47,491 bases of DNA, taken from Alphaproteobacteria bacterium (GTDB lineage: Bacteria; Pseudomonadota; Alphaproteobacteria; SHVZ01). How positions within the stretch are numbered: position 1 is the stretch's first letter; each line of letters begins with the position of its first letter. The stretch covers positions 1 to 47,491 of the forward strand of contig CAXNIC010000002.1 in assembly GCA_964201945.1 (NCBI GenBank), written 5' to 3'. Shown piece by piece: positions 30,986 through 47,346 of the stretch. Position numbers and translations under genes: made by a program. The notes beneath the pieces are model-generated. The model saw only the letters and a list, made by a program, of their open reading frames with translations, ran no database searches and was not told where the DNA came from.

Positions 30986-31504
30986 TCAGAAACGGATGTC
31001 GGCCGACTCGATGACTTCGGCAAAGTCGCGGAGAACTGCATTGTGGTGGGCGACGATCTGCGGCGCCCTGAGCACGGCCGAGTCGAAGGTCGAATGCGCG
31101 TCGGAGGCCAGCACCACCTTGTAGCCAAGAGCGAAGGCGGCGCGGGTCGTGGTGTCGACGCAGAACTCGGTCTGCATGCCGGCGATCACCAGGCGGCCGA
31201 TGCCGCTGGCCCGCAGCCGCGCGTCGAGCCCGGTGCCGAGAAAGGCATCGCAGCGATCCTTGACCACCACCTCTTCACCCGGCTTCGGCGCCACGTCCGG
31301 ATGAATGGCGAACCCGGTCGTGCCGCGGGCAAGCGGGTGGCCGTCGTCTCCGGCATGCTGCACATGGAAGACGGGAACGCCCTCGGCTCTGGCACGGTCC
31401 TGCAGCGCGCGCAGGCGCTTCAGCAACTCATCCGGACGGTAGGGTCGCAGCGGATCGCGGAACATGCCCTGCTGGACATCGATGACGACGAGTGCGGTCG
31501 ACAT
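30986..31504 (-). CDS. Isochorismatase-family cysteine hydrolase
   Basis: Motifs: ALVVIDVQQGMF (Asp), VVVKDRCDAF (Lys), GMQTEFCVDTT (catalytic Cys). Confidence 0.85.
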   Translation of the reverse strand: MSTALVVIDVQQGMFRDPLRPYRPDELLKRLRALQDRARAEGVPVFHVQHAGDDGHPLARGTTGFAIHPDVAPKPGEEVVVKDRCDAFLGTGLDARLRASGIGRLVIAGMQTEFCVDTTTRAAFALGYKVVLASDAHSTFDSAVLRAPQIVAHHNAVLRDFAEVIESADIRF

Positions 31505-31679
31505 TGAGAGTCGCTCCTGACCGGGACCTATGGTCGCCGGAGTCTACGGCGTGTCGTCTACGCGACGGAAGCCGTCGTTCCCCGCCCGGGCCGCCGGCGG
31601 CAAACAAGGCATAGAACCAGGATGGCCCGAAGTGGCCAGGATCACGCAACCCGAGGCAGGGGCGCCGGACCGCCAGACG

Positions 31680-32567
31680 ATGCCCGACGCAATGGATCAT
31701 GCGGACGCGCCGGCGATACCGGCCACGATCGAGCTGTCGGCCCGCTCGATCGCGGCCGATCCCGCCGCCCTGCGGTTGATCCCGCCGGCAACACGGGTTT
31801 ATCTCGTCGACGCCGGCGACGGGCCGGCTTCCGAGTGGACGGACGCCTGTCGTCGGCTCACCGATGCGGGGCTGGAGCCCGTACCTCACATCGCCTGCCG
31901 GCGCATCCGTAGCCTTCAGGACATCGATGAGCGTCTCGAGGCCATGGCCGGAGCCGCCGGCATCCGCGACGTCCTGGTCATCGGCGGCGACATCGCCCGG
32001 CCGCTCGGTCCCTTCGCCTCCTCGATGGACCTGCTCGAGACCGGCATCCTGCAGCGTCACGGGATCACGAGGTTCGGCATCGCCGGTCACCCCGAGGGCT
32101 CTCCGGACGTCGCGCCGGCGGCGGTCGTCGACGCCCTGCACTGGAAGATCGAGCTCGCGGCCCGCACCGGCCTGGAGATCCGCCTGGTCACCCAGTTCGG
32201 CTTCGACCCGGAGGCGACGATCGGCTGGGCCGCGCGCCTGGCAGCGGAGGGCATCCGCCTGCCGATCCATGTCGGCGTCGCCGGCCCGACCAGCATGACC
32301 CGGTTGCTGAAATATGCGGCCCTCTGCGGCGTGCGCGCCTCGGCGTCGTTCGCCCTGAAGCGTGGCGCTGCGTTGACCTCGCTGATGGGTGGTTATTCGC
32401 CGGACCCATATGCGCGCGCGATCGAACGGAGCGGCCACGTCACGCAACTGCATGTCTATGCGTTCGGTGGCCTGGCGGCGACCGCCCACTGGCTGATCGG
32501 ACGAGGCTCGTGGCGCGGGCGGGACGAGACGACGCAAGCGATTCAGAACGTCAGGAGCATGCCGTGA
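31680..32567 (+). CDS. Methylenetetrahydrofolate reductase (MTHFR/MetF) family protein
   Basis: ORF 31530..32567. The start is tentatively ATG 31680 (ATG 31692 is also possible). MTHFR-like blocks: PHIACR, VLVIGGD, GIAGHPEG, VTQFGFD, PIHVGVAGP. Confidence 0.75.
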   Translation: MPDAMDHADAPAIPATIELSARSIAADPAALRLIPPATRVYLVDAGDGPASEWTDACRRLTDAGLEPVPHIACRRIRSLQDIDERLEAMAGAAGIRDVLVIGGDIARPLGPFASSMDLLETGILQRHGITRFGIAGHPEGSPDVAPAAVVDALHWKIELAARTGLEIRLVTQFGFDPEATIGWAARLAAEGIRLPIHVGVAGPTSMTRLLKYAALCGVRASASFALKRGAALTSLMGGYSPDPYARAIERSGHVTQLHVYAFGGLAATAHWLIGRGSWRGRDETTQAIQNVRSMP

Positions 32568-33493
32568 CGGAGACTGTCCTGCATTCGGCGACAAAGACCG
32601 CCGTGATCGGCTTCGGCCGGCCGTTCTGCGTGATCGGCGAGCGGATCAACCCGACGGGGCGGAAGAAACTGGCGGAGGCGATGATGGCCGGTGACTTCTC
32701 TGGCGTTTCCGCCGACGCCTTGGCCCAGGTCGCGGCCGGCGCCCTGGTGCTGGACGTGAATGCCGGGGTCACCGCCGTCGACCCGAACCTGTCTGAGCCA
32801 CCTTTGCTCGCCAGGACCATCGAGCTGGTGCAGTCGCTGGTCGACGTTCCGCTTTGCATCGACTCCTCGGTCCCGGCCGCTCTTGCGGCCGGACTTGCTG
32901 TCGCCAAGGGCCGGCCACTGGTGAACTCGGTGACCGGCGAGGAGGATCGGCTGGAAACGATCCTGCCTTTGATCAAGAAGTTCAACGTACCGGTGGTGGC
33001 GATCTCCAACGACGAATCCGGGATCAGCTACGATCCCGACGTGCGCTTCGCCGTTGCCAAGAAGATCGTCGAACGTGCCGCCGACCACGGCATCAAGCCA
33101 GAGGACATCGTCGTCGACCCACTGGTGATGCCGATCGGCGCCTTGAACAATGCCGGCTCCCAGGTCTTCCGCCTGATCCGGCGGCTGCGCGAGGAGCTCA
33201 AGGTCAACACCACCTGCGGCGCCTCCAACATCTCCTTCGGCATCCCCAACCGGCGAGTGATGAACGCCCACTTCCTGTCGATGGCCGCGGCCGTCGGCAT
33301 GACCAGCGCGATCATGAATCCGCTGCACAAGGAGGACATGGACGCGATCCGTGCCGCCAACACGCTGAACGGCTTCGACCCCGACTGCATGGCCTGGCTT
33401 CGGGCCAACCGAGACCCGGCAGCGGGCGGGGAAGCGGGGGCGGCCCGTCGCGAGCGCCGGGGGCGGCGCCAGGGGGCGGAGGCGGGCGCCTGA
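32564..33493 (+). CDS. Pterin-binding methyltransferase (methyl-THF:corrinoid methyltransferase; CmuB/MtrH/MetH-pterin-domain-like)
   Basis: GTG 32564 overlaps the upstream stop (GTGA), with AGGAGC 6 nt upstream. Motifs: IGERINPTGRKK, LVNSVTGE, TCGASNISFGIPNR (compare MetH GGVSNVSFG). Confidence 0.75.
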   Translation: MTETVLHSATKTAVIGFGRPFCVIGERINPTGRKKLAEAMMAGDFSGVSADALAQVAAGALVLDVNAGVTAVDPNLSEPPLLARTIELVQSLVDVPLCIDSSVPAALAAGLAVAKGRPLVNSVTGEEDRLETILPLIKKFNVPVVAISNDESGISYDPDVRFAVAKKIVERAADHGIKPEDIVVDPLVMPIGALNNAGSQVFRLIRRLREELKVNTTCGASNISFGIPNRRVMNAHFLSMAAAVGMTSAIMNPLHKEDMDAIRAANTLNGFDPDCMAWLRANRDPAAGGEAGAARRERRGRRQGAEAGA

Positions 33494-33556
33494 AAGGTTG
33501 CGTTTGCGGGCCAAATTGCCGTATTGCCGATAGTTCAACGTGGTCAGGGGAACCGG

Positions 33557-35968
33557 GTGAAGACCGAAATTCGTGTAGCGGTGATCGGCGGCGGTGTCGT
33601 CGGCGCGAGCGTGCTTTATCACCTGACCAAGCTCGGCTGGACCGACATCGCGCTGTTCGAGAAGCATGAGCTGACCTCGGGCTCGACCTGGCACGCGGCG
33701 GCGAGCGTCCACACCTACAACTCCGACGCCAACGTCTCGAAGCTGCAGAAATACACCATCGACCTCTACCGCGAGATCGAGCAGATCTCCGGCCAGAGCT
33801 GCGGCATCCACGCCACCGGCAACATGGTGGTCGCCACCACCGACGAGATCTTCGACAATCTGAAGCTGATGCATTCCCGCGCCAAGTACCTGGGCATGGA
33901 GACGCACCTGATCACGCCGTCGGAGGCGAAGAAGCTCAACCCGCTGATCGACGACAAGTGCTTCGTCGGCGCGCTCCATCGCATCGACGGCGGCCATGTC
34001 GACCCGAACGGCGTCACCCACGCCTATGCCATTTCTGCCCGGAAGGCGGGCGCCGAGGTTCACCGCTTCACCCAGGTGACCGGCTTGACCCAGCGTGCCG
34101 ACGGTACCTGGGACGTCGCCACCGACAAGGGCATGGTCCATGCCGAGCACGTGGTCAACGCCGCCGGCCTCTGGGCCCGCGAGGTCGGCCGCATGGCCGG
34201 CATCGAGCTGCCGGTGCTGGCGATGGAGCACATGTATGTGGTGACCGAGGAGATCCCCGAGGTCGTCGCCCATGGCCGCGAGGTCCTGCCGACCACCGAC
34301 TATTTCGGCGAGATCTACATGCGCCAGGAGGGGCGGGGCGTGCTGCTCGGCACCTACGAGAAGGATTGCCGGGTGTGGTCGCCGCACACGACGCCGTGGG
34401 ACTTCTCGATGCAGCTGCTGCCCGACGATCTGGATCGCCTCGCACCGCATCTCGAGATCGGCTTCAAGCACTTCCCGGCGGTCGGCCGCGCCGGCATCAA
34501 GAAGGTGGTCAACGGCCCCTTCACCTTCGCGCCCGACGGCAACCCGCTGGTGGGGCCGGTGCGCGGACTTCGCAACTACTGGTCGGCCTGCGGTGTCATG
34601 GCGGGCTTCGCCCAGGGTGGCGGCGTCGGCCTGGCGCTGTCGCGCTGGATGGTCGAGGGCGATCCCGGTGCCGACATCTTCGCCATGGACGTCTCGCGCT
34701 TCGGCAAATACGCGACGCACCAGTACACGCTGATCAAGGTGCCGGAGAACTACAGCCGGCGCTTCCGCATCGCCTATCCGAACGAGGAGATGCCGGCCGC
34801 TCGCCCGCTGCGCCGGACCCCGGTCTATGACCGCCTAAAGGACGCCGGCGCCGTGTTCGGGGCCAATTTCGGCCTTGAGGTTGCGCTCTGGTATGCGCCG
34901 AAGGGCATGGAGCCCGTCGAGAACCCCACTTATCGCCGCTCCAACGCCTTCCCGATCGTGAAGGAGGAGTGCCACGCGGTCCGGAACGCCGTCGGCCTGA
35001 TGGAGATCTCGGGTTTCGGCAAATACGAGGTGGTGGGACCGGACGCGGAGGCGTGGCTCAACCGTATCCTCGCCAACAAGATGCCGAAGCCCGGCCGCAT
35101 GGTGCTGGCGCCGATGCTCAATCCGCGCGGCACCGTCATCGGCGACTTCTCGGTCGCGCGCCTCGCGCAGGATCGCTTCCTGATCATCGGCTCGGGCGTC
35201 GCCGAGATCTATCACATGCGCTGGTTCGAGCAGCACCCGCCGCCGGCCGGCACTTATATCCGGCCGCTGCCGCATGCGCTGACCGGCTTCGGGATTGCCG
35301 GCCCGAAGTCCCGCGAGCTGCTGCAGCGCCTGGTGTTCGAGGATGTCTCGCACCAGGCGTTCAAATTCTTCGCCGCCCGCGAGATGGTGGTGGGGCTGGC
35401 GCCCTGCACGGTGCTCCGTGCCAGCTATACCGGTGATCTCGGCTACGAGATCTGGACGACGCCGGACTATCAAGTGACGCTCTATGACGCGCTGGTCGAG
35501 GCCGGCAAGGATCTCGGCCTTCGCCATTTCGGCAATCGGGCGCTGATGTCACTGCGCCTTGAAAAGGCCTATGGCGCCTTCTTCCGCGAGTTCCGCCCGG
35601 ACTACACGCCGATGGAGAGCGGGCTCGACCGCTTCGTCGCCTATGACAAGGCGGACTTCATCGGCCGCGAGGCGGCACTGAAGGACCGCGCCACGCCGCC
35701 GAAGAAGAAGCTGGTGCCGCTGATCGTCGAGACCGATGTCGAGGTCGTGGGATATGAGAGCGTGATGAAGGGCGACGACGCGGTCGGCCAGGTGACCTCC
35801 GGCGGCTACGCCCATTGGGCCGGCAAGAGCATGGCGATGGCCTATGTCGACCCGGCGCTGGCCAAGGACGGCGAGACGCTGTCGGTCCTGATCTTCGGCA
35901 AGGCCTGCCCGGCGGTGGTCGCGATGCAGCCGCTGTTCGACGCCAATGGCGGGCGCCAACGGGGGTAG
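33557..35968 (+). CDS. Dimethylglycine/sarcosine dehydrogenase-family enzyme (FAD oxidoreductase + GcvT aminomethyltransferase domains), copy 1
   Basis: The start is set to GTG 33557 by alignment to copy 2 (MKTEIRVAVIGGGVVG vs MKSHVRVAVVGGGVVG). Covalent-FAD-type motif SGSTWHAA. C-terminal GcvT-type region SYTGDLGYEIW. Confidence 0.85.
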   Translation: MKTEIRVAVIGGGVVGASVLYHLTKLGWTDIALFEKHELTSGSTWHAAASVHTYNSDANVSKLQKYTIDLYREIEQISGQSCGIHATGNMVVATTDEIFDNLKLMHSRAKYLGMETHLITPSEAKKLNPLIDDKCFVGALHRIDGGHVDPNGVTHAYAISARKAGAEVHRFTQVTGLTQRADGTWDVATDKGMVHAEHVVNAAGLWAREVGRMAGIELPVLAMEHMYVVTEEIPEVVAHGREVLPTTDYFGEIYMRQEGRGVLLGTYEKDCRVWSPHTTPWDFSMQLLPDDLDRLAPHLEIGFKHFPAVGRAGIKKVVNGPFTFAPDGNPLVGPVRGLRNYWSACGVMAGFAQGGGVGLALSRWMVEGDPGADIFAMDVSRFGKYATHQYTLIKVPENYSRRFRIAYPNEEMPAARPLRRTPVYDRLKDAGAVFGANFGLEVALWYAPKGMEPVENPTYRRSNAFPIVKEECHAVRNAVGLMEISGFGKYEVVGPDAEAWLNRILANKMPKPGRMVLAPMLNPRGTVIGDFSVARLAQDRFLIIGSGVAEIYHMRWFEQHPPPAGTYIRPLPHALTGFGIAGPKSRELLQRLVFEDVSHQAFKFFAAREMVVGLAPCTVLRASYTGDLGYEIWTTPDYQVTLYDALVEAGKDLGLRHFGNRALMSLRLEKAYGAFFREFRPDYTPMESGLDRFVAYDKADFIGREAALKDRATPPKKKLVPLIVETDVEVVGYESVMKGDDAVGQVTSGGYAHWAGKSMAMAYVDPALAKDGETLSVLIFGKACPAVVAMQPLFDANGGRQRG

Positions 35969-36014
35969 AGCGAGACTCGATGCAAGCCGCATCGATGGTG
36001 AAGGAAGTGTTTCG

Positions 36015-36830
36015 ATGTCCGATCTGATCGCCAATGCCCGCATGTACTCGGTCGCGCCGGAAGCGGCGGCGGCGTGGAAGCGGCTGTTCGCCTGGCTCAA
36101 GGAGCGGTCGGGCGTCGAGATGACGGTGATCGACCACGCCTTCCCGGCGTCGCTGGACGAGTTGTGGTCGCGGACGGATCTCGCCTGCACCTTCATGTGC
36201 GGCTGGCCGTTTATGCGCTATGGCGCCATCCACCAGGTGGTGGCGGCGCCGATCCCGAGCGCCCCTTATGCCAAAGGCCGTCCGGTCTATTGCTCGCATT
36301 TCGTCGTCCGCGACGACGCGCCGTTCAAGACGCTGGAGGACACCTTCGGCCATCGCTTCGCCTATACGATCCCGGACTCCCATTCCGGCTACAACGCGCC
36401 GCGCCATCATCTGCTCTCCTTTCGGAAGGGCGGAACCAAGGCTCTCTACCGGGAGATCGTCGGCCCCTTGCGGACGCCGCGGCTGATGGTCGAGGCGATC
36501 GTCGAGGGCAAGACCGATGTCGGTCCGCTCGACTCCTTCGCCTATGCACTGCTTCGCCGCCACTGGCCGGAGGTCGCCGGCCGTACCCGGGTGATCGCGT
36601 CCACCGAGGTGGTACCTATCCCGGCCTTCATGGCGTCCGCCGGCACATCGCCGGAAATCGTCGACCGCCTCGCCGAGACGCTATGCACCTTCGGCGACGA
36701 TCCGTCACACGCAGCGTTGCGCGAAGATCTTTGCATCCTCGGATTTGCCCGTGTCGCCGAGAGCGAGTACCGGATCACCGAAGACTGGGCCCAGGCCGCG
36801 GAGACGCGAGGCCTCGCCGAGATCGCCTGA
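36015..36830 (+). CDS. PhnD/phosphonate-binding-like periplasmic-binding-fold protein lacking a signal peptide
   Basis: ORF 35946..36830 trimmed to ATG 36015, behind AAGGAAG. N-terminus MSDLIANARMYSVAPEAAAAWKRLF is typical of PhnD-like family members and has no hydrophobic leader. The assignment is from overall sequence pattern only. Confidence 0.6.
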   Translation: MSDLIANARMYSVAPEAAAAWKRLFAWLKERSGVEMTVIDHAFPASLDELWSRTDLACTFMCGWPFMRYGAIHQVVAAPIPSAPYAKGRPVYCSHFVVRDDAPFKTLEDTFGHRFAYTIPDSHSGYNAPRHHLLSFRKGGTKALYREIVGPLRTPRLMVEAIVEGKTDVGPLDSFAYALLRRHWPEVAGRTRVIASTEVVPIPAFMASAGTSPEIVDRLAETLCTFGDDPSHAALREDLCILGFARVAESEYRITEDWAQAAETRGLAEIA

Positions 36831-36831
36831 G

Positions 36832-37425
36832 ATGCGGGCGCTGCTGCAGGCGATCGAGACGCTCTATCATCCTGCCGCCGATGGCCCGCTTGCGGTCGCC
36901 GCGAAGAGGATCGCAGGCGCCAGTCCCCAGCCGGGCAAGGGGACGCGGAAGCCGGTCGCGCAGTTCGTGCCTCGGGCCGTCGAACTGGCGCGCAAGGGGC
37001 CATTGGCCGCGATCGCCGAAGCCTTCGCCGCGATCGAGCCCGAGGCCGACTGGCTGCAGAACCCGAACTATTCGGTGGCGAGCCTGGGGCTGGGCTATGT
37101 CGACCGCTATGGCTATGTCGAGCTGGTCGGTCCCGGCCGGCCGGTCGAGAGCGCGGATCTTCTGGTCGGGCTGCTGCTGCTCGGGCCTGGCATGGACTAT
37201 CCCGACCACGCCCATCCGGCCGAGGAGGTCTATCACGTGATCGCCGGCCAGGCCGACTGGTGGCGCGAGGACGAGGGCTGGCGGCAGAAGGCGCCGGGTG
37301 CGGTCATCCATCATGCGCCGATGGTGCGTCACGCGATGCGGACGGCCGAGGAGCCGCTGCTGGCGCTCTATTGCTGGACCGGCCGCGTGCAGGTCTACGC
37401 GACGATGACGGAGGCGAAGGGATGA
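36832..37425 (+). CDS. Cupin protein with DMSP-lyase-type (DddQ/DddK/DddL-like) metal/Tyr motif
   Basis: ATG 36832 is 1 nt after the upstream stop. Cupin motif 1 is GMDYPDHAHPAEEVYHVIAG, which contains H-x-H-x3-E-x-Y. Motif 2 is PGAVIHHAPMVRHAM. Confidence 0.65.
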   Translation: MRALLQAIETLYHPAADGPLAVAAKRIAGASPQPGKGTRKPVAQFVPRAVELARKGPLAAIAEAFAAIEPEADWLQNPNYSVASLGLGYVDRYGYVELVGPGRPVESADLLVGLLLLGPGMDYPDHAHPAEEVYHVIAGQADWWREDEGWRQKAPGAVIHHAPMVRHAMRTAEEPLLALYCWTGRVQVYATMTEAKG

Positions 37426-37823
37426 GCGAAGCCAAGGGGCAATGTCTTTGCGGCGCGGTCCGCTTCCGGTTGGCTGGCGAGAAGCGGCCTGTGGTGGTCT
37501 GCCATTGCGGCCAGTGCCGGCGCTGGCATGGCCATGTCGGCGCCTATACGAGGGTGCCGCTCTCGGCGCTGACGGTGGAAGACGAGCGCAGCCTCGCCTG
37601 GTACCGAAGCTCGGAGTGGGCGCGGCGCGGCTTCTGCCGCGAGTGCGGGTCGAGCCTGTTCTGGGAAAGGATCGGCAACGACCACGTGTCGGTCGCCGCC
37701 GGCACGCTGGCGGCGCCGACCGGTCTCGAGACGGTGCTGCAGATCTTCGCCGAGGATGCCGGCGACTACTACGAGATCGACGACCGCATTCCCACTCGGC
37801 CGCCAGTCTCCGCGGCCGGCTGA
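37422..37823 (+). CDS. GFA (glutathione-dependent formaldehyde-activating enzyme / CENP-V) family protein
   Basis: ATG 37422 overlaps the upstream stop (ATGA). Zn-Cys pattern: CLCGAVRF, CHCGQCRRWHG, CRECGSSLF. Confidence 0.8.
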   Translation: MSEAKGQCLCGAVRFRLAGEKRPVVVCHCGQCRRWHGHVGAYTRVPLSALTVEDERSLAWYRSSEWARRGFCRECGSSLFWERIGNDHVSVAAGTLAAPTGLETVLQIFAEDAGDYYEIDDRIPTRPPVSAAG

Positions 37824-39838
37824 GCCGGGGTGCCGTCGAGGTCCAGATGGCAGGCGATCCTGTGCTCGCCGAAGCGCCGGACCGGCGGCGGCGTTGTCTC
37901 GCAGAGCCCGGCGATACGCTCCGGGCAGCGGCTGGCGAAGGGGCAGCCGACGATGACGTCGGTCGGGCTCGGCATGCTGCCTTCAAGCACCCGGTCCGGC
38001 GGCTCGGCGTCGGGATCCGGCGTCGGCGCAGCGGCAAGGAGGGCCGCCGTGTAGGGGTGATAGGGCGGGGCGAAGACCTGCTCGACCGGACCGTACTCGA
38101 CGATGCGGCCGAGATACATCACCGCGACCCGGTCGGCCATGTGGCGGACCAGCGCCAGGTCGTGGGAGATCAGCACGAGTCCGAGCTGCGAGCTTTCCAG
38201 GAGCTCGGCCAGCAGGTTCAGGATCGCCGCCTGCACCGACACGTCGAGGGCGGAGACCGGCTCGTCGGCGACCATCAGACCGGGATTGCCGGCCAGCGCC
38301 CGGGCGATGGCGACGCGCTGGCGCTGGCCCCCCGAGAGCTGGTGCGGCATGCGCTCGGCCATGTCTGCCGGCAGGCGGACCTGGGCGAGCAGCTTCGAGA
38401 CTTCGGCCTTGGCGTCGCGGTTCGCGAGGTTGCGCAGGAGCCGGAGGGGGCGGGTCAGCGCATAGGCGATCGAATGGCTCGGATTCAACGTCGAGTCCGG
38501 GTTCTGGAACACCATCTGGACCTGACGGCGGAGATCGGGCGGGCGGATGTCGACCGGGATCGTGGCGACGTCGGTGCCGCCGATCAGGGCCTCGCCCGAA
38601 GTCGCGGTCAGCAGGCCGGAGATGATCTTTGCCAGGGTGGACTTGCCGCAGCCGGACTCGCCGACGATCGCGAGCGTCTCACCGGCGCGGGCGTCGAGAT
38701 CGACGTCGGTGAGAGCGCGGACCACCTTGCCGGTGCCGCCGAACATGCCGCCGAGCTTGTACTCTTTCGTCAGGTTGCGGACGCTGAGCAGGATCGGCGC
38801 GTCGCCGGCGACAGGCTCGTCGTTGCCGAGGGTCGGGGCGTCAGCGGCTGAGGCGCGGATGGCGTCGAGGCGCACGCAACGCGCAAGATGGGCGTCCGAG
38901 CCGTTGGCGGGAACCATGGGCACCGGCCGTTCCTCGCATTCGTGCCTGACCGCGTAGACGCAGCGCGGCGCGAAAGCACAGCCCATGCGGGCCCGGTCGG
39001 CGGCGGCTATGGTTCCTTCGATCGGCCTGAGGCGCCCACGCCGGCGACCGCCGTGAAGGCGGGGGAGAGCGCCGAGCAGTCCGCGCGTATAGGGATGCGC
39101 CGGCGCATGGAACACGGACGCGATGTTGCCGGTCTCGACCAGCCGGCCGGCATAGAGCACGCCGATGCGGTCGCAGATCCGCGCCACCGTGCCGAGATTG
39201 TGGCTGATGAACAGGATCGCGGTGCCGAACTTGGCGCGGAGCTCGCGCACGAGCTCGAGGATCGCCGCCTCGATGGTGACGTCGAGGCCGGTCGTCGGCT
39301 CGTCCATGATCAGGAGCGCCGGTTCGGCCATCAGCGCCATGGCGATGACGACGCGTTGCTGCTGACCGCCCGAGAGCTGATGGGGATAGCGCTCCATCAT
39401 CGCCGCGGCGTCAGGAAGGCGGACCTCCTCCAGCATGGCGACGGCGCGGCGGAAGGCCGCCGCCTCGTCGGTCTCGCCGTGGAGGAGCGGCACCTCCATC
39501 AGCTGCCGGCCGATCGGCATCACCGGGTTCAGGCTCGACATCGGGTCCTGGTAGACCATGGCGATGCGGTTGCCGCGGATCCGGGACAGCTCGTGGTCGG
39601 TGAGGCCGGCGGTGTCGCGGCCTTCCACCAGGATCCGCCCTTCGACGATGCTCATGCCGCGCGGCAAATAGCGCATCGCCGCCAGCGCTACCGTCGACTT
39701 GCCGCAGCCGGACTCGCCGACCAGGCCGAGCGCCTCGCCTTCGGCGATGGTGAAGCTGACGTCCCTCAGGATGTTCTGGCGGCCAGACCGGTGGTCGTAG
39801 GCGATGGAGACGTTCTCGAAGGCGAGGACGTCAGCCAT
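37769..39838 (-). CDS. Fused double ATP-binding protein of a Dpp/Opp-type ABC importer
   Basis: Two complete ATPase cassettes. First: GESGCGKST...[15 protein letters not shown]...[11 protein letters not shown]. Second: [12 protein letters not shown]...[15 protein letters not shown]...[11 protein letters not shown]. Both have HPYT C-domains. Confidence 0.9.
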
Positions 39839-40736: not shown

Positions 40737-41671
40737 ACCCGGATCCGCGGATCGAGCGCCATGTAGCCGAGATCGCCGAAGAGCTGCGTCAGCATGGTGA
40801 CGCTGACGGCGATCAGCGTGCCGGCCTCGATCACGGCGATGTCCTTGGCCAGCGCCGCCTCCAGCATCATCCGGCCGAAGCCAGGATAGGCGAAGAGGGT
40901 TTCGACCACGACGAGGCCGGAGACCAGGTAGTTGAGCTGCAGCAAGATCACCGTGAACGGCGTGATCAGGGCGTTGCGCAGCGCGTGGCGCGAGACCACG
41001 CGGTTGAACGACATGCCCTTCAGCAGCGCGGTCCGGATGTAGGGTTGGCGCATCACCTCGACCATCGAGGAGCGCACCATCGCGATCAGATAGCCGGCAT
41101 CATAGAAGGTCACCACCAGCACCGGCAGGACGAACTGCATCCAGATCGCCCAGCCGCTGTCGGATCGCAGCGGCGAGGTGCCGGGAAGCCAGCCCAGCCA
41201 CACCACGAAGATGCCGAGCAGGAACACCCCCATGGCGAATTCGGGGATGGACGCGCACATCGACGAGAACACCGAGATGGTGCGGTCGAACCAGCCGCGC
41301 TCGCGCATGCCGGCGAGCACGCCGAGGACCACGGAGAGCGGCACGATCACCGCGAAGGAGATGGCGGCGAGCAGGAGGGTGTTGCCGAGGCGGTCGAACA
41401 TCAGGTCGGCGACCGGCATGCGGAAGACGATCGAGTCGCCGAAGTCGCCGGTGAGCGCCTTGCCCATGTATTCGAAGTAGCGGACGATGGCGGGGCGATC
41501 GAGCCCCATCTGTACGGTCAGGTGGTCGACCTGGCTCTCGCTCGCATAAGGCCCGAGGATCTTGCGGGCGACGTCGCCCGGCGACAGCTCGTTCAGCGCG
41601 AAGACGAGGAACGACACCGCGAACAGCGTCAGCGCCATGTTCAACAGCTGCTTCGCGGAATAACGCAGCAT
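40733..41671 (-). CDS. ABC transporter permease (DppB/OppB-like)
   Basis: Multi-TM. EAA-type loop QPYIRTALLKGMSFNRVVSRHALRNALIT, C-terminal LDPRIRV, ATGA overlap with the next gene. Confidence 0.85.
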   Translation of the reverse strand: MLRYSAKQLLNMALTLFAVSFLVFALNELSPGDVARKILGPYASESQVDHLTVQMGLDRPAIVRYFEYMGKALTGDFGDSIVFRMPVADLMFDRLGNTLLLAAISFAVIVPLSVVLGVLAGMRERGWFDRTISVFSSMCASIPEFAMGVFLLGIFVVWLGWLPGTSPLRSDSGWAIWMQFVLPVLVVTFYDAGYLIAMVRSSMVEVMRQPYIRTALLKGMSFNRVVSRHALRNALITPFTVILLQLNYLVSGLVVVETLFAYPGFGRMMLEAALAKDIAVIEAGTLIAVSVTMLTQLFGDLGYMALDPRIRV

Positions 41672-41763
41672 CGCCGCTCCAGGCGGTTGATGTTATCGGG
41701 AAAATGACGGCCGCTCCGCGGGCGCGATGGGCGCCCGCGGAGCGGAACCGTTCAGGCCTTGAA

Positions 41764-43428
41764 TCAGGCGTCGATCCACATGTCCTTGGCGTCGATGTAG
41801 ATGCTCGGGTGGATCTTGTATCCCTTGATCTTCTTGTCCGAGTAGTTGAACACCGCGCGCCAGACCGGGACCACCGCCGGGCCGTCGTCGAGCATGATGC
41901 GCTCGAGCTTGGCCATCACCGCGCGGCGCTTCTCGACGTCGAGATAGCCTTCGGCCTCGGTCAGCAGCTTGTCGAACTCGGCATTCGACCAGTTCGCCTC
42001 GTTCCAGGCGGCGCCGGTGCGATAGGCGAGGCCGAGGATCATGGTGCCGAGCGGGCGATGGGCCCAGGTGGTGAAGCCGAACGGCACCTTGGTCCAGTTC
42101 GCCCAATACTGTGCCGACGGCATCACGTTGATCTTGCAGCGGATGCCCGCTTCCTTCCACTGCTCGACCATGATCTGGACCGCGAGCAGCTCCCAGTCCG
42201 GCTGGGGGCGGGCGTCGATGGTGACGTCGATGCCGTTCGGATATCCCGCCTCGGCCAGAAGCGCCTTCGCCTTGGCAATGTCTTGCTTGAGATAGCCGAT
42301 GTCGGCGTATTCCGGATGCACCGGCGCGACATGGTGGTGCTCGCCGGGCTTGCCGAGGCCGCGCAGCGCCCCCTTGAGCACGGCGTCGTTGTCGGTGGCG
42401 TAGCGCAGCGCCTGTCGCACCCGCTTGTCGTCGAAGGGCTTGATCGGGTGGGTGCGGGCGACCGCGGTATAGCCTGTCGCAACCGAGTTGACCTGCACAT
42501 GCGGCAGCTTCTCGACCGTCGGCAGCGTCGAGATCGCGCCCTGGTAGATCATGTCGACCTGCTTGGAGGCCAGCGCCGAGACCTGGGCTGCGGCGTCGTC
42601 GCCGAGGTCGATGATCTCGTAGCGGTCGATGTACGGACCGCCGCCCCAATAGGCCTTCTTGTTCGCGGCGAAGACCGAGCGCTTGCCGACCTCATGCTCG
42701 ACCAGCTCGAAGGCGCCGGTGCCGTCGCTGCCGACGCCGAACTTGCCGCCGTCCTCCGGCGAGCAGATCAGCAGCGGGTAGTGGAACAGCGATTCCGGGA
42801 TCGAGAGATTGGCGGAGTTGCCGTTCAGCTTGATGGTGAAGTCGTCGACCTTCTGGATCGCATTCGCATCCCAGAGCTTGACCGACTTCCTGGGCGCGCC
42901 CTTGGCGTCCTTCTCGCCGCCGTCGTACTCGGTCAGGATGAAGCCCTTGAGTAGGCCGACGACAGACGATCCGGTCTTGTCGTCGAGGACGCGCTTCAGG
43001 TTCCAGACCGCATCGTCGGCGGTGAACTTGCGGCCCTTGCGCCAGGTCACGTCCTTGCGCAGATGCAGGGTCCAGGTCTTGAGATCGGGGCTTGCCTCCC
43101 ACTTCTCGACCAGCGAGGGCCGCGTGACGTTGTCGATGCCGGTGACGGTCAGGTAGTCGAGAACCTGGCGAGCGGAATTGGCCGACTCGATCCAGGAATA
43201 GGTATGCGGGCTGGAGATGTCCTGCACGCGCATGCCGATGCGGACGATGCCGCCCTTCTTCGGCGCGCCCTGGGCCAGGGCCGGAGCGGCGAGGCCCACC
43301 ATGCTGTAGGCGGCCGGCGCGGCGACGCCGAGCAGGACGGCCAAGCGTAGAAACTCGCGGCGCTCGAGCTTGCCGTCGGCGAACTCTCGGCCGGCCTTCT
43401 CGATGATCGGATGCAGCTTCTCGGTCAT
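41764..43428 (-). CDS. ABC transporter substrate-binding protein, family 5, with twin-arginine signal
   Basis: ORF 41764..43497 trimmed to ATG 43428, behind GGGAGGTGA. Tat motif ERREFLRLAVLLGVAAPA...ALA|QG. SBP_bac_5 core (SLVEKWEASPDLKTWTLHLRKDVTWRKGRKFTADD; GTGAFEL). Confidence 0.85.
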   Translation of the reverse strand: MTEKLHPIIEKAGREFADGKLERREFLRLAVLLGVAAPAAYSMVGLAAPALAQGAPKKGGIVRIGMRVQDISSPHTYSWIESANSARQVLDYLTVTGIDNVTRPSLVEKWEASPDLKTWTLHLRKDVTWRKGRKFTADDAVWNLKRVLDDKTGSSVVGLLKGFILTEYDGGEKDAKGAPRKSVKLWDANAIQKVDDFTIKLNGNSANLSIPESLFHYPLLICSPEDGGKFGVGSDGTGAFELVEHEVGKRSVFAANKKAYWGGGPYIDRYEIIDLGDDAAAQVSALASKQVDMIYQGAISTLPTVEKLPHVQVNSVATGYTAVARTHPIKPFDDKRVRQALRYATDNDAVLKGALRGLGKPGEHHHVAPVHPEYADIGYLKQDIAKAKALLAEAGYPNGIDVTIDARPQPDWELLAVQIMVEQWKEAGIRCKINVMPSAQYWANWTKVPFGFTTWAHRPLGTMILGLAYRTGAAWNEANWSNAEFDKLLTEAEGYLDVEKRRAVMAKLERIMLDDGPAVVPVWRAVFNYSDKKIKGYKIHPSIYIDAKDMWIDA

Positions 43429-43539
43429 GCTCACCTCCCTGGTGAAATTGCGCGGTCCGGCCTTTCGCGGCGGTTTCGGCGCAAGGGTGATCGACATCGG
43501 ACACGTCGTGGGTCGAGGCTAGTCCAGCGCGCCCGACAG

Positions 43540-43553
43540 GCGCAAGCTTGCGC
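43540..43553. promoter_or_regulatory. Perfect 14-bp palindrome in the divergent control region
   Basis: GCGCAAGCTTGCGC read directly. It lies between the SBP start (43428, -) and the oxygenase start (43680, +). No cognate regulator gene is present in the island. Confidence 0.35.
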
Positions 43554-43679
43554 ATACCCTGGAGTAGCCGGCCAGCGACATCCGGTGTCGCGATTGGGCG
43601 GAGCGCCTCCCAACTTTGTCCGTGCCGGCCCTTCGATTGTCGCGCAGAATGCGGCTACTCCGGCTTTCGGCGCTTGTCC

Positions 43680-44702
43680 ATGATCCCGACCATCGACATC
43701 TTGTCCCTTCTCGGCCCTCCCACGCGTCTTCGCGAGGACACCGACCGGCGCGTCATGGAGGCGGCCAGCCGGATCGGGTTTCTGACGATCTCGGGCCTGC
43801 CGGTCGACGTGCCGCAGGGACCGGCGGTGCGCGCCGGACTGCTTCGGGTTTTCTCGCTGGCGGACGCGGCGAAGCGGGCGCTCTGGCGGCGCAAGTTCGA
43901 TCCGGCGCGGCCGAACGTCTACCATGGCTGGTTTCCGCTCCAGAACGGCGCCATGACCTACAAGGAGGGCATCGACATGGGGCCGGATGTCGCCGATCCG
44001 GCCCATGCCTGCGATCCGACCGATCCGCTGACGGAGCCGACGCCGCTGCCGGACGAGGCCATCCTGCCGGGCTGGCGGGCGGAGGCGGGACAGTACTACC
44101 GCGGGATGGAGAGGCTCGGCCGCCTCCTGATGCGGTCGGTCGCCCGCGGCCTCGGCCTGCCCGAGTCCTTCTTCGATGCCTCCTTCGCCGGCGGCAACTC
44201 GACGCTGCGGCTGATCCGCTATCCGGTGCGGCCGCCCGAGTCCTTCGCCGGCGGGGACATGGACGCCATCCTCGTCGACCATGGCGGCGCACGCCGCCAC
44301 CTGATCGGCGGCGCCCATGTCGACTCGGGCTTCGTCACCCTGCTGGCCCAGGACGGCATCGAGGGCCTGCAGGCCCGGTCGGCCGCCGGCACCTGGCTCG
44401 ACGTTCCGCCGGTCGAAGGCACGCTTGCAGTCAATTTCGGCGGCGTACTCGAGCGCTGGACCGGCGGGCGGATCAAGGCGACCGAGCACCGGGTCGTCGG
44501 CCCGGGGCGCGAGCGCTTCTCGATCCCGTTCTTCTACGAGCCCCGGGTCGACGCGGTGATCGCGCCCCTGCCGATCCCGGGCGTCCAACCGTTCGAGCCT
44601 TTCCTCTACGGCGACCATCTGTGGGCGGCGATGATGCGTTTCGTCGAGTTCCGCGGGCTCGAGGCGATGCGGCCGCCGCGCGGTCTCAGGGCTACGGGTT
44701 GA
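43680..44702 (+). CDS. 2-oxoglutarate/Fe(II)-dependent oxygenase (isopenicillin-N-synthase-like family)
   Basis: ORF 43548..44702 trimmed to ATG 43680 (MIPTIDILSL...). Facial triad H-x-D (GAHVDSG) plus distal His (KATEHRV). 2OG-binding RERFSIPFF. Confidence 0.8.
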   Translation: MIPTIDILSLLGPPTRLREDTDRRVMEAASRIGFLTISGLPVDVPQGPAVRAGLLRVFSLADAAKRALWRRKFDPARPNVYHGWFPLQNGAMTYKEGIDMGPDVADPAHACDPTDPLTEPTPLPDEAILPGWRAEAGQYYRGMERLGRLLMRSVARGLGLPESFFDASFAGGNSTLRLIRYPVRPPESFAGGDMDAILVDHGGARRHLIGGAHVDSGFVTLLAQDGIEGLQARSAAGTWLDVPPVEGTLAVNFGGVLERWTGGRIKATEHRVVGPGRERFSIPFFYEPRVDAVIAPLPIPGVQPFEPFLYGDHLWAAMMRFVEFRGLEAMRPPRGLRATG

Positions 44703-44724
44703 TCGATCGAACCGGGGGGAGTGG

Positions 44725-47151
44725 ATGAAGTCCCATGTCCGCGTCGCCGTCGTCGGCGGCGGCGTCGTCGGCTGCAGCGTGCTGTTCCACCTGGCCAAGG
44801 CTGGCTGGCGCGATATCGCGCTGCTCGAGCGGCTGGAACTGACCTCGGGCTCGAGCTGGCACGCGGCCGGCGGCTTCCACACGCTGAACGGCGACCCGAA
44901 CGTCGCCAAGCTGCAGAGCTACACGGTGCAGCTCTACAAGGAGATCGAGGAGATCTCCGGCCAGTCCTGCGGCCTCCACATCACCGGCGGCATGATGCTG
45001 GCCGGCACGCCCGAGCGCATGGACTTCCTCAAGCTCGCCCACGCCAAGGGCCGCTACCTCGGCATGGAGACCGAGATCATCGACGCCGCCGAGGCGAAGC
45101 GCCGCCTGCCGCTGCTGGACGAACGCCACTTCCTCGGCGCCATGTACGACCCGCTGGAAGGACATCTCGATCCGTCCGGAACCACCCATGCCTATGCCAA
45201 GGCCGCCCGCAGCTTCGGCGCCGAGATCTACCGCCAGACCCGGGTCGTCGAGCTGAACGCCCGGCCTGACGGCGGCTGGGACGTGGTCACCGACAAGGGC
45301 ACCATCCGCGCCGACCACGTGGTGAACGCCGGCGGTCTCTGGGCCCGCGAGGTCGGCCGCATGGTCGGGATCGAGCTTCCGGTGCTGGCGATGGAGCATC
45401 ACTACATCGTCACGGAGGACATGCCCGAGGTCGCTGAGGCCAACGCCGCGACCGGCAAGGAACTCATCCATGTCATCGACTTCGAGGGCGAGGTCTATCT
45501 GCGCCAGGAGGGGAAGGGAATCCTGCTGGGATGCTACGAGCGGCAAGGCGTGCCCTGGGCGCCCGACAGCACGTCCTGGGACTTCGGGCCGGAGCTGCTG
45601 GCCGAGGATCTCGACCGGATCGGTCCCAGCCTCGAAGTCAGCTTCAAGCACTTCCCGGCGATGGCGAAGGCAGGGATCAAGCGGGTGGTGAACGGCCCCT
45701 TCACCTTCACCCCCGACGGCAACCCGCTGGTCGGCCCGGTCCGGGGCCTGAGCAACTACTGGGCCGCCTGCGGGGTGATGGCCGGATTCAGCCAGGGCGG
45801 CGGCGTCGGCCTGGCGCTTGCCAACTGGATGATCGAGGGCGATCCCGGCTTCGACGTCTGGGGCATGGACGTGTCGCGCTACGGCGACTGGGCGACCCCG
45901 GCCTATACCAATGCCAAGGTGCGCGAGAACTATTCGCGGCGCTTCCGCATCCGCTTCCCCAACGAGGAGCTGCCGGCCGCCCGCCCGCTCAAGACCGTGC
46001 CGATCCAGAGCCAGCTCGAAGCGGAGAACGCCGTCTTCGGCGCCTCCTACGGCCTCGAATATCCGCTGTGGTTCGCACCCAAAGGCATGCCGGCCGAGGA
46101 GACCGTCACCTATCGCCGCTCCAACGCCTTTCCCGTCGTCGCCGCGGAGTGCCGGGCGGTCAGGACCGGCGTCGGCCTGATGGAGACCTCCGGGTACGGC
46201 CGCTACGAGGTGGCCGGGCCGGATGCGGAAGCATTCCTCGATAGCCTGCTCGCCAACCGCATGCCGGCGCCGGGCCGCCTCGTGCTGGCCCCGATGCTGA
46301 ATGCCAAGGGCAAGCTGATCGGCGACTTCACCGTCGGTCGGATCGCGCCCGACCGCTTCTTCATCGTCGGCTCAGGACCGGCCGAAGCCTATCACCTCCG
46401 CTGGTTCGAGCGTCAGCGGGGCGGGCGCAACGTCACCATCCGGCCGATGACGGCGGAAATGGCCGGGCTCGCCATCGCCGGGCCGAAGGCGCGGGACCTG
46501 CTGGCACGGCTGGTCCGCGACGACCTGTCGACCGAGGCGTTTCCCTTCCTTTCGATCCGCCGTATGGCGGTCGGGATGGTGCCGGCGCTGGTCTCGCGCA
46601 TCAGCTTCACCGGCGAACTGGGCTATGAGCTCTGGTGCGCGCCGGACAGCCAGCGGGCGCTCTACCAGGCGATCCGGGACGCCGGCCGCGACCTCGGCCT
46701 GGTGCTGTTCGGCAGCCATGCGCTGCTGTCGCTCCGCCTGGAGAAGGGCTTCGGCATCTGGGCCCGCGAGTACCGGCCGATCTATGGACCGGAGGAAGCC
46801 GGCCTCAAGCGCTTCGTCCGCCTCGACAAGGGCGACTTCGTCGGCCGCGAGGCGGCTAAGGCTGAGCGCGGGGAGGGCGGCGAGCGCCGGCTGGTGCTGT
46901 TCGAGGTCGATGCGCGCGATGCCGATGCCTTCGGCGACGAACCGATCTGGTACGCCGGCAAGGTCGTCGGCTGGATCACCTCCGGTGGCTACGGCCACAC
47001 GGTCGGCAAATCGCTGGCGCTGGGTTATGTGCCGAAGGCGCTTGCCGGGCAGGCATCAGGATTCGAGATCGAGATCATCGGCGAACGCCGCGGGGCGCGC
47101 ATCCTGGAGGCGTCGCCTTACGACGTGAGCGGAGGACGGATGCGGGCGTAG
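44725..47151 (+). CDS. Dimethylglycine/sarcosine dehydrogenase-family enzyme (FAD + GcvT domains), copy 2
   Basis: Motifs: MKSHVRVAVVGGGVVG, SGSSWHAAG, SFTGELGYELW. Collinear with copy 1 over its full length, roughly 60% identity by eye. Confidence 0.85.
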   Translation: MKSHVRVAVVGGGVVGCSVLFHLAKAGWRDIALLERLELTSGSSWHAAGGFHTLNGDPNVAKLQSYTVQLYKEIEEISGQSCGLHITGGMMLAGTPERMDFLKLAHAKGRYLGMETEIIDAAEAKRRLPLLDERHFLGAMYDPLEGHLDPSGTTHAYAKAARSFGAEIYRQTRVVELNARPDGGWDVVTDKGTIRADHVVNAGGLWAREVGRMVGIELPVLAMEHHYIVTEDMPEVAEANAATGKELIHVIDFEGEVYLRQEGKGILLGCYERQGVPWAPDSTSWDFGPELLAEDLDRIGPSLEVSFKHFPAMAKAGIKRVVNGPFTFTPDGNPLVGPVRGLSNYWAACGVMAGFSQGGGVGLALANWMIEGDPGFDVWGMDVSRYGDWATPAYTNAKVRENYSRRFRIRFPNEELPAARPLKTVPIQSQLEAENAVFGASYGLEYPLWFAPKGMPAEETVTYRRSNAFPVVAAECRAVRTGVGLMETSGYGRYEVAGPDAEAFLDSLLANRMPAPGRLVLAPMLNAKGKLIGDFTVGRIAPDRFFIVGSGPAEAYHLRWFERQRGGRNVTIRPMTAEMAGLAIAGPKARDLLARLVRDDLSTEAFPFLSIRRMAVGMVPALVSRISFTGELGYELWCAPDSQRALYQAIRDAGRDLGLVLFGSHALLSLRLEKGFGIWAREYRPIYGPEEAGLKRFVRLDKGDFVGREAAKAERGEGGERRLVLFEVDARDADAFGDEPIWYAGKVVGWITSGGYGHTVGKSLALGYVPKALAGQASGFEIEIIGERRGARILEASPYDVSGGRMRA

Positions 47152-47346
47152 TCGGCGAGTCGCCACCCACACAAGGCCCGCTCGTCGGCTACCGATGCGG
47201 CGTTACGGAAGACGCCCAACACGCCGCCGCCGGACTGGGACGCGGCGAAGAAGCGCGAATGCGAGACGGCAATCCAGACGGATAAGGTAGGTTGAGCCTT
47301 TCGATCCGAGGCGCGATTTTCCCTGGACGAGTGTTTCTCAAGGCAC

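Follow-up and report, generated by a model that had tools for sequence, protein, structure and literature searches.

Twelve genes on an alphaproteobacterial contig (GenBank assembly GCA_964201945.1, contig CAXNIC010000002.1, positions 1–47,491, here called the window) probably form part of a conserved island that strips N-methyl groups from an imported betaine-type quaternary methylammonium compound and delivers them to the tetrahydrofolate (THF) pool. We put the probability of this reading, which draws on protein families and gene linkage, at about 60%. An earlier annotation of the same DNA (the original prediction) had proposed a coherent C1/methyl catabolic island feeding THF at 31680–47151, and both synteny and family assignments bear this out. 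The evidence lies in an enzyme pair akin to components of the corrinoid-dependent Mtg demethylation system, in two flavoproteins of the dimethylglycine dehydrogenase (DMGDH) type, in a 12-gene order kept across relatives, and in the methyltransferase and corrinoid genes that follow this order where relatives' DNA extends further.

Genes were called from the GC content of third codon positions (GC3) and the open reading frames (ORFs) were scanned with Pfam and NCBIfam profiles. All 12 predicted genes are real ORFs, with GC3 values of 0.82–0.93, and lie in three strand blocks as predicted:

31680–32567, plus strand: type-4 (S6MTHFR-like) methylenetetrahydrofolate reductase (MTHFR); PF02219 38 bits, 7xg9 186 bits
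32510–33493, plus strand: MtgD/CmuB-type pterin-binding methylcorrinoid:THF methyltransferase, probable start near 32549; PF00809 104 bits, NF005719 379 bits
33524–35968, plus strand: DMGDH-type flavoprotein 1 (FAD amine dehydrogenase with THF-binding GcvT part), probable start 33557; DAO, FAO_M, GCV_T and GCV_T_C
36015–36830, plus strand: PhnD/AioX-like binding-fold protein, cytosolic, without signal peptide; PF12974 (Phosphonate-bd) 102 bits
36832–37425, plus strand: DddQ-like cupin of the dimethylsulfoniopropionate (DMSP)-lyase family (cupin-DLL); PF16867 DMSP_lyase 118 bits
37422–37823, plus strand: GFA-domain protein (glutathione-dependent formaldehyde-activating enzyme family); PF04828 71 bits
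37769–39838, minus strand: fused double ATPase of an Opp/Dpp-type ATP-binding cassette (ABC) importer; two ABC_tran and two oligo_HPY domains
39831–40736, minus strand: OppC-type permease; OppC_N and BPD_transp_1
40733–41671, minus strand: OppB-type permease; BPD_transp_1_N and BPD_transp_1
41764–43428, minus strand: family-5 solute-binding protein with the twin-arginine (Tat) signal RREFLR; PF00496 (SBP_bac_5) 224 bits
43429–43679, no strand: divergent control region between importer and 2-oxoglutarate (2OG) oxygenase genes; alignment of 12 relatives
43680–44702, plus strand: 2OG/Fe(II) oxygenase of the isopenicillin N synthase (IPNS)/ACC-oxidase/ethylene-forming enzyme (EFE)-like branch; PF03171 67 bits, DIOX_N weak
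44725–47151, plus strand: DMGDH-type flavoprotein 2; DAO, FAO_M, GCV_T and GCV_T_C
47347–47491, minus strand: 3′ end of an IS630-family transposase gene; translated C-terminus ...KPFTWTKDPNKIIAAVKRGHQVLDSIH followed by the stop codon

The PhnD-like, cupin and GFA genes are joined by a 1-nt gap or by a start/stop overlap, the ATPase and permease genes overlap too, and this spacing would fit three transcription units; the GFA and ATPase genes converge with an overlap of 55 nt. At family level, the two DMGDH-type N-demethylases, the importer and the formaldehyde-handling protein are all as proposed. The predicted cupin is indeed a cupin, not a generic one but a member of the DMSP-lyase family PF16867. 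The 2OG/Fe(II) oxygenase likewise stands as a family, with its reading frame corrected to 43548/43680–44702; the longer, overlapping ORF 43616–44728 matched no family.

The first two genes tie the locus to known THF-linked chemistry. On similarity, the MTHFR-like protein groups with S6MTHFR and not with MTHFRs of types 1–3, matching the S6MTHFR structure 7xg9 with an E value of 1e-53 and ordinary MTHFRs (E. coli, Thermus and others) at about 34 bits or less. S6MTHFR of Sphingobium SYK-6 is the founding type-4 MTHFR (Yu et al. 2025, PMC11868366); enzymes of this type, which include the MetF2 of the chloromethane pathway, oxidize the CH3-THF that arises from THF-dependent demethylases, and their signature comprises Leu48-Pro49 in loop b2-a3, Phe215/Cys219 in helix a8 and Pro268-Phe-Gly-Gly-Leu in loop b8-a11 (PMC11868366). 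In a HMMER alignment, the window protein keeps Cys219 and has Tyr in place of Phe215. It is 25% identical to a MetF2-type protein of Alsobacter and gave no tblastn match to the MetF2 of Sinorhizobium meliloti. We predict from these relationships that it oxidizes CH3-THF to CH2-THF. The adjoining pterin protein scores above the cutoff of 259 bits for NF005719 (methyl-THF:corrinoid methyltransferase) and is 72–74% identical to the product of a gene in the mtg cluster of S. meliloti, a cluster that also encodes trimethylamine-methyltransferase-family (MTTB), cobalamin-binding, DUF1638 and Virulence_fact proteins, an MTHFR C-terminal domain, an MTHFR and an ASKHA/RACo protein.

Proteomics and knockouts in Ruegeria pomeroyi have demonstrated aerobic glycine betaine demethylation by the Mtg system, which comprises MtgB, MtgC, MtgD, MetF2, DUF1638 and RamA, doubles as a split methionine synthase and is often co-located with genes for the later demethylations (Mausz et al., PNAS 2025, PMC12478193). 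Because their homologues are S6MTHFR and MtgD, the MTHFR-like protein and the pterin methyltransferase would together form the outlet of a corrinoid-dependent methyl transfer, running from methyl-corrinoid through CH3-THF to CH2-THF. The original prediction had found no match to any known gene set, a claim that no longer holds: the pair corresponds to MetF2/MtgD (and resembles CmuB/MetF2), and its partners lie downstream in relatives. As in the Mtg clusters of R. pomeroyi and S. meliloti, an MtgD-type gene in the window adjoins the gene of a predicted methyl-THF-oxidizing MTHFR, DMGDH-type genes for later demethylations are co-located, and the same island of relatives holds genes for MTTB, B12-binding, DUF1638, RACo/RamA and BHMT-like (MtgE) proteins. 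Unlike those clusters, the window has no MtgB, MtgC, DUF1638 or RamA gene, its MTHFR is of the S6MTHFR type without tblastn-detectable similarity to S. meliloti MetF2, the island-type MttB falls in a separate orthogroup (41–52% identity), and the described system does not include the island's Opp-like importer, 2OG oxygenase, PhnD-like protein, DddQ-like cupin, GFA protein and DddP-like protein. The other type-4 systems are likewise matched in part: among solved structures, S6MTHFR comes nearest to the window's MTHFR-like protein, whose gene adjoins that of a methyl-THF-producing methyltransferase as metF2 does with cmuB, whereas no O-demethylase of the LigM/DesA type is present here, and family scans found the two-domain methyltransferase/corrinoid protein CmuA neither in the window nor in the extended loci of relatives.

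Both DMGDH-type proteins match mammalian DMGDH over the full length, about 790 of some 805 residues (type 1 with human 5l46, 609 bits; type 2 with the rat enzyme, 634 bits), and share the identical domain architecture of the mammalian enzymes (5l46, 4pab). Unlike the mammalian case, the island carries two paralogues, which are 58% identical and belong to different orthogroups. Since both are equally like mammalian DMGDH, similarity did not separate a dimethylglycine enzyme from a sarcosine enzyme. The type 1 orthogroup is limited to island-type loci, and in one of them (L074) its gene adjoins soxA and soxG. The type 2 orthogroup is broad, and its gene often adjoins an MttB gene elsewhere: in the cultured Alsobacter metallidurans, a type 2 orthologue (69%) directly follows MTTB near a complete Mtg set, and among distant, partly marine metagenome loci MTTB lies within 6 kb of the type 2 gene in about one-third, with an M24 gene also in about one-third.

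To follow the island across genomes, an alignment of cupin homologues was scanned against one genome per species, yielding 58 loci, all in metagenome-assembled genomes (MAGs) from lakes, groundwater and soil (L numbers denote individual loci). The complete 12-gene order recurs in L001, L003, L005, L006, L008 and L065, and in L007, L009 and L153 as far as the contig or fetched locus extends. These nine loci represent at least nine independent contigs, with cupin identities of 66–98%; the co-localization of the 12 genes is not due to chance. Their left flanks are of three unrelated kinds, namely the window's, that of L001 and one common to the remaining relatives. L001 is 98.7% identical to the window over 36014–47350 and 89% over 31672–35973, and the two share no DNA to the left of 31672, 8 nt before the first start codon. 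Given the variety of flanks and these steps in identity, the block behaves as a moved or recombined unit; the pattern in L001, with breaks at 31672 and at 35973–36014, suggests either a mosaic left by recombination or an assembly in which strains were mixed.

Synteny had been named as the check on the island, and the order is conserved in at least nine contigs, though the units reassort in distant relatives. One locus (L059) has the order DMGDH1, PhnD-like, cupin, GFA and M24, then the importer, then MTTB, DUF1638 and B12-binding; another (L060) has PhnD-like, FA_desaturase and cupin, then a major facilitator superfamily (MFS) gene and the importer, then 2OG oxygenase and DMGDH2. On one strand, L020 carries PhnD-like, FA_desaturase, cupin, GFA, M24 and MTTB, and L023 carries PhnD-like, cupin, B12-binding, DUF1638 and MTTB. 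Such reshuffling, together with the PhnD-like and cupin pair standing by itself in L062 and with the 2OG oxygenase, the importer and the MTTB–DMGDH2 pair also being found apart, is what one would expect if the three units were unrelated operons that merely lie side by side. We regard that as highly improbable, as the full 12-gene order persists in the nine or more contigs across cupin identities of 66–98% and three different left flanks, and the modules re-associate in other orders (L059, L060, L074, L020 and L023).

The 15.5 kb first taken for the whole island is incomplete: it breaks off at an IS630 element and the contig end, and its partner genes lie downstream in relatives. At the right end, the predicted IS630 remnant is present as a transposase fragment that is 70–75% identical to annotated IS630-family transposases, and the similarity of L001 to the window ends at 47359. 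A public contig that encodes an identical DMGDH2 protein (99.3% DNA identity to the window) stops about 330 nt beyond DMGDH2, no more than 8 nt from where the window ends; a metagenome scan was therefore anchored on DMGDH2. In every close relative with downstream DNA (L071, 95%; L073, 86%; L153, 85%; L072, 84%), the next genes after DMGDH2, on the opposite strand, encode an MttB-family methyltransferase, a DUF1638 protein and a B12-binding corrinoid protein, and in L065 too an MttB gene lies directly 3′ of DMGDH2. Further on, L072 and L153 carry genes for a DddP-like M24 protein, a Virulence_fact protein, a Fer2-RACo corrinoid activase and an MR_MLE protein. L153 adds an iron-containing alcohol dehydrogenase (Fe-ADH) gene and an S-methyl_trans (MtgE/BHMT-like) protein that passes the NCBIfam BHMT cutoff; its corrinoid protein scores 204 bits against the NCBIfam MtgC model, under the cutoff of 370. 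On the favoured reading, the 12-gene region is the left two-thirds of a conserved island of about 25 kb. The DddP-like M24 genes, which lie among MttB and corrinoid genes, are located as follows:

L072, 15370–16662, minus strand
L153, 15491–16732, minus strand
L059, 11071–12321, plus strand

Building on the observed families and gene linkage, we predict activities and a substrate as follows. The compound would enter through the Tat-exported family-5 binding protein and the Opp-like ABC system, and the 2OG/Fe(II) oxygenase is predicted to hydroxylate or oxidatively demethylate it, while the GFA protein may trap free formaldehyde. An MttB-family enzyme, the gene of which is known from the relatives' downstream DNA, would move the first methyl group to a corrinoid protein; to judge from characterized homologues, the window's MtgD-type protein would pass it from the corrinoid to THF and the type-4 MTHFR would oxidize CH3-THF to CH2-THF. 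The remaining two methyl groups would be taken as CH2-THF by the two DMGDH-type flavoproteins, whose architecture is plain and whose substrates we presume. As a best guess, the PhnD-like, cupin and GFA proteins serve the same pathway in a metal-dependent elimination or other processing of a carboxylated onium intermediate, the anionic end of which the PhnD-like protein might hold.

Several observations weigh against demethylation of a betaine-type compound by this locus, or against its simplest form. Profile scans of the 47.5-kb window found no MttB-family (PF06253) gene and none for a corrinoid protein or its reactivation factors DUF1638 and RamA/RACo, and the window genome's own methyltransferase, corrinoid and activase partners are unseen. 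The 208 nt after DMGDH2 are common to the window and L001 only, are unlike other relatives and are followed by the IS630 element; the 340 nt 3′ of DMGDH2 contained no MttB remnant. The type-4 motifs of the MTHFR-like protein are only partly kept, PFGGL being AFGGL and the Leu48-Pro49 position being Ala-Gly in the HMMER alignment. Glycine betaine normally enters cells through ProU/OpuA, betaine-choline-carnitine transporters (BCCT) or similar systems, not through a family-5 Opp-like one, and the window's family-5 binding protein is like no characterized solute-binding protein. Finally, the island-type MttB forms its own orthogroup (64–100% identity within it). Its identity to S. meliloti MttB is 41%, and it shares only about 50% with another MttB type, whose genes neighbour those for DMGDH and sarcosine oxidase (DMGDH2 in Alsobacter, DMGDH1 and sox genes in L074). 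In L074 (12490–22411), L075 and L086, two MttB orthogroups occur a few kilobases apart, one beside DMGDH2, M24 and MR_MLE and the other beside DMGDH1, soxA and soxG, which suggests two parallel quaternary-amine routes in one region. Because the orthogroups are separate and occur side by side, the island-type MttB probably has a substrate that differs from that of the neighbouring type and from plain glycine betaine. With this MttB, the importer type and the extra enzymes, plain glycine betaine sits uneasily as the substrate. Roughly half of the probability given to the betaine-type reading goes to plain glycine betaine, and we consider an analogue or precursor more likely than glycine betaine itself.

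The accessory genes raise a different set of possibilities. In the original prediction DMSP was considered under demethylation only, and the kinship of the cupin with DMSP lyases was missed. DddQ is reportedly a cupin DMSP lyase described by Todd and colleagues in 2011. The best solved relatives of the window's cupin are DddQ structures (5cu1, E 1e-21, then 4b29, 4la2 and 5jso; 57–81 bits), its segment YPDHAHPAEEVYH ... RHAM aligns with the metal-binding and catalytic site of DddQ, and the site motif Y..H-x-H-x3-E-x-Y...H is invariant in 21 homologues of the family alignment. The two proteins thus have in common the Pfam family PF16867, the Tyr, His-x-His, Glu, Tyr and His residues of the site and a DMGDH-like neighbouring gene, as reported for dddQ. 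The window protein is nonetheless not close kin of verified DddQ: similarity is low, no NCBIfam model matched it, and it falls in a family of its own with at least 685 members from metagenomes. In further contrast to DddQ, it occurs here in non-marine hosts, forms an obligate pair with a cytosolic PhnD-like protein, has GFA behind it and is linked to MttB and corrinoid genes.

The PhnD-like gene adjoins the cupin gene in 21 of the 23 loci among L001–L027 with room upstream of the cupin, and the best solved relatives of its product are the AioX/ArrX oxyanion sensors. GFA is kept 3′ of the cupin in relatives, and the 4-nt start/stop overlap of these two genes suggests translational coupling. The M24 protein of relatives is, by similarity, a clear DddP homologue (334–349 bits to RdDddP, 4b28). 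Against the NCBIfam DddP model NF043017 it reaches 425.5 bits, under the equivalog cutoff of 600. Like DddP, the M24 proteins of L072 and L153 keep the strictly conserved metal-site blocks; unlike dddP, which has its own neighbourhood in roseobacters, the gene lies among MttB and corrinoid genes in relatives. Homologues of the two disputed DMSP lyases, DddP and DddQ, thus occur together in a single island of non-marine bacteria.

The island could instead serve a sulfonium compound, DMSP or an analogue, with the cupin and the M24 protein cleaving it to dimethyl sulfide (DMS) and acrylate or with MttB and the corrinoid protein demethylating the sulfonium. We think this unlikely. In its favour are the full set of DddQ metal-binding and catalytic residues in the PF16867 cupin, the M24 scores of 349 bits to RdDddP and 425 bits to the DddP model, and the Fe-ADH gene at the edge of the extended island, which presumably resembles DddB of the dddD cluster. 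Yet both of the largest enzymes belong to the flavin amine dehydrogenases, whose targets are N-methyl and not S-methyl groups; none of the acrylate and methylmercaptopropionate (MMPA) genes acuI, prpE and dmdBCD occurs in the island or the extended loci; the carriers are freshwater, groundwater and soil MAGs; the DddP-like protein falls short of its equivalog cutoff (425 versus 600 bits); and the cupin resembles DddQ only weakly, at 57–81 bits.

A role of these families outside DMSP cleavage has been considered before. Lei and Tawfik judged DddP and DddQ promiscuous and not genuine DMSP lyases, and noted DMGDH-like and mandelate-racemase-like genes in the dddQ neighbourhood (bioRxiv 10.1101/161257, 10.1101/168930). 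Following their idea, the island might degrade proline betaine or hydroxyproline betaine, with MttB acting like MtpB, a DMGDH-type enzyme acting on N-methylproline and the mandelate-racemase (MR)-family protein as an epimerase. Apart from the reported dddQ neighbours, this would fit the MR-family gene in the relatives' extended island, the two DMSP-lyase-family cupins in a stachydrine-like cluster on a Rhizobium plasmid (L067) and the plasmid-borne PhnD-like homologues beside ornithine-cyclodeaminase-family and MR genes. With only two N-methyl groups, however, proline betaine falls short of the three demethylation steps encoded by the window genes and the relatives' MttB. The MR protein is matched best by sugar-acid dehydratase models (156 bits) and by cis-3-hydroxyproline dehydratase at only 85 bits, and its best solved relatives bear only generic mandelate-racemase-family names; genes for hydroxyproline oxidase, the deaminase and α-ketoglutarate semialdehyde (KGSA) dehydrogenase were not seen in the examined loci. 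On balance this alternative seems improbable, about as much so as a sulfonium substrate.

More remote still, the accessory genes might turn a methylated organo-oxyanion such as a trimethylated aminophosphonate into glycine betaine for subsequent demethylation. TmpA and TmpB are a precedent for converting a trimethylated aminophosphonate. The PhnD/AioX-like fold is typical of binders of phosphonate, phosphite and arsenic oxyanions, and it is associated with a 2OG oxygenase and with metal-dependent enzymes, namely the cupin and, in L060, L020 and L069, a membrane di-iron protein resembling FA_desaturase. Set against this, the oxygenase lies in the IPNS/EFE branch and not with TauD/BBOX, there is neither an HD-domain oxygenase nor a phosphonate transporter, the PhnD-like protein stays in the cytosol, and the case is purely one of analogy; we rate it very unlikely.

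For the betaine-type reading, expression in R. pomeroyi offers an independent angle on the DddP and DddQ families. We take its gene SPO2299 to be dddP. In cultures to which no DMSP was present (PMC12478193), "DMSP lyase SPO2299" rose significantly in all four conditions, with log2 changes of +3.6 on carnitine, +4.1 on choline, +5.0 on glycine betaine and +4.9 on succinate plus glycine betaine, and DddQ (SPO1596) rose by log2 +2.4 in the two glycine betaine conditions only (Dataset S1, PMC12478193). The rise of SPO2299 is in the range of MtgC, RamA and DUF1638 (about 2.5–4.5) and mostly higher (Dataset S1, PMC12478193); the main text of that paper mentions neither SPO2299 nor SPO1596. DddP and DddQ are thus co-induced with the Mtg system without DMSP, which matches the gene linkage in the islands. 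We tentatively propose, at odds well short of even, that the distinct MttB and corrinoid protein, the DddP-like M24 protein, the DddQ-like cupin, the PhnD-like and GFA proteins and, in some loci, the FA-desaturase-like protein constitute an undescribed and broadly conserved module that degrades a methylated onium compound new as a bacterial substrate, and that this would reveal a native, non-DMSP role of DddP and DddQ in betaine-type catabolism. Such a role fits the induction in R. pomeroyi by glycine betaine, choline and carnitine. In the literature we found no described link of DddP or DddQ to MttB/DMGDH clusters beyond the neighbourhood note of Lei and Tawfik, and no paper describing a PhnD-like/DddQ-like/GFA/DddP-like module.

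The core logic of the island is known from the 2025 work, and about half of its genes match described pathways. What is new is the arrangement, the finding that uncultured Alphaproteobacteria of fresh water and soil carry it, the MttB orthogroup of its own and the conserved PhnD-like/DddQ-like/GFA/DddP-like module. The described pathways account neither for the tightly conserved PhnD-like/cupin/GFA module, which travels with the distinct MttB and the DddP-like protein, nor for the 2OG oxygenase paired with an Opp-like importer. Surveys of ocean metagenomes routinely use counts of DddP and DddQ genes as markers of DMS production, and the native function of the two enzymes has been open since 2017 in view of their weak, unselective activity on DMSP. 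Finding homologues of both in a corrinoid- and folate-dependent N-demethylation island, together with induction by N-osmolytes, makes the question of their native substrates testable. The island also widens the range of the aerobic cobalamin-dependent system to include lineages from fresh water and soil, and points to a second class of MttB substrates and to B12-dependent turnover of osmolytes outside the sea. Should the accessory genes prove irrelevant, it would be merely a new arrangement of the known glycine betaine pathway.

The original prediction also held that no substrate could be assigned, and this still applies: solved structures did not name a ligand, as the solute-binding protein (41764–43428) has no close characterized relative (best PDB match 111 bits, with only distant Dpp, Opp and AgaA proteins) and the 2OG oxygenase has only distant best matches, to the EFE-like 9ovh (122 bits) and thymine dioxygenase. 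The pairing of these two genes recurs on a plasmid of Roseovarius pelagicus (L151, 9992–16142), where the gene of a 2OG oxygenase with 47% identity comes directly before those of an Opp-like importer (binding protein, two permeases and fused ATPase). The same plasmid carries, close by, genes for choline dehydrogenase, a betaine-type ABC system, a dmdB-like protein, an acyl-CoA dehydrogenase and an enoyl-CoA hydratase.

As predicted, no transcription factor is encoded between 29.3 and 47.2 kb, where Pfam and NCBIfam scans found no DNA-binding family in any ORF. Small ORFs at 29288–29671, 29753–30190 and 29180–29629, and those in the gaps of relatives, matched no DNA-binding family. The sole helix-turn-helix (HTH) gene of the 47.5-kb window is of the MarR/ArsR type, at 8181–9146. 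Rfam detected no riboswitch or RNA regulator at gathering thresholds and only two chance-level matches at E < 1, and a sigma-70 promoter scan, which is uninformative at this GC content, returned no sites. The control region between the importer and oxygenase genes holds a non-coding block, TCGAGGCTAGTCCA (43513–43526), conserved in the alignment of 12 relatives, and an inverted repeat, GCGACATCCGGTGTCGC (43575–43591), which in relatives reads TGGTCGC-N3-GCGACCA. Block and repeat may form a candidate operator for a regulator encoded elsewhere. A common operator for both plus-strand units found no match, the 43.5-kb inverted repeat not being repeated at 31.5 kb. Between the genes for the binding protein and the first permease, a scan for terminator-like structures identified a perfect 15-bp hairpin (41711–41745, minus strand) with 14 of 15 pairs G-C, followed by a T-run, which is probably an intra-operon attenuator or messenger RNA stabilizer. 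The same hairpin is the site of a spurious, weak Rfam microRNA match.

Homologues of the accessory proteins also occur on plasmids. A cultured carrier of the PhnD-like and cupin pair was not among the genome loci (58 of 58 are MAGs), plasmid homologues being less than 50% identical, and the nearest named PhnD-like match, from Aliidongia, could not be located. PhnD-like homologues without a signal peptide (37–47% identical) are carried by plasmids of Paracoccus saliphilus (L068), Terrarubrum flagellatum (L069) and Rhizobium johnstonii 3841 (L070), where they repeatedly adjoin an ornithine-cyclodeaminase-family gene. Their other neighbours depend on the plasmid: hutC/hutH, a betaine-type ABC system, or mandelate racemase, FA_desaturase, B12-binding, DUF1638 and RACo genes. 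An FA_desaturase-family (membrane di-iron) gene lies between the PhnD-like and cupin genes in many relatives, namely L060 (9087–10004), L020 (8949–9818), L019, L021, L027 and L069, an insertion absent from the window's clade. DMSP-lyase-family cupins occur on 174 plasmids, mainly of Rhizobium and Sinorhizobium. The two on plasmid pRspN324e of the terrestrial Rhizobium sp. N324 (L067, 8860–11916) lie in a stachydrine-like cluster with a StcD-like NADH:flavin oxidoreductase, electron transfer flavoprotein (ETF) alpha and beta subunits, gfa, fghA, a class III alcohol dehydrogenase, a proline/glycine betaine ABC system and hydroxyproline-type genes.

To the left of the island, a Peripla_BP_2 binding protein without an adjoining permease is encoded at 30187–31128 (minus strand). 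It scored only 52 bits as BtuF, under the cutoff; a tie to B12 supply for the corrinoid pathway is possible and unsupported. Further left, positions 1–20403 hold four more family-5 binding-protein genes (55–1512, 6522–8060, 9269–11158 and 18841–20403) and two additional sets of Opp-type permease and ATPase genes.

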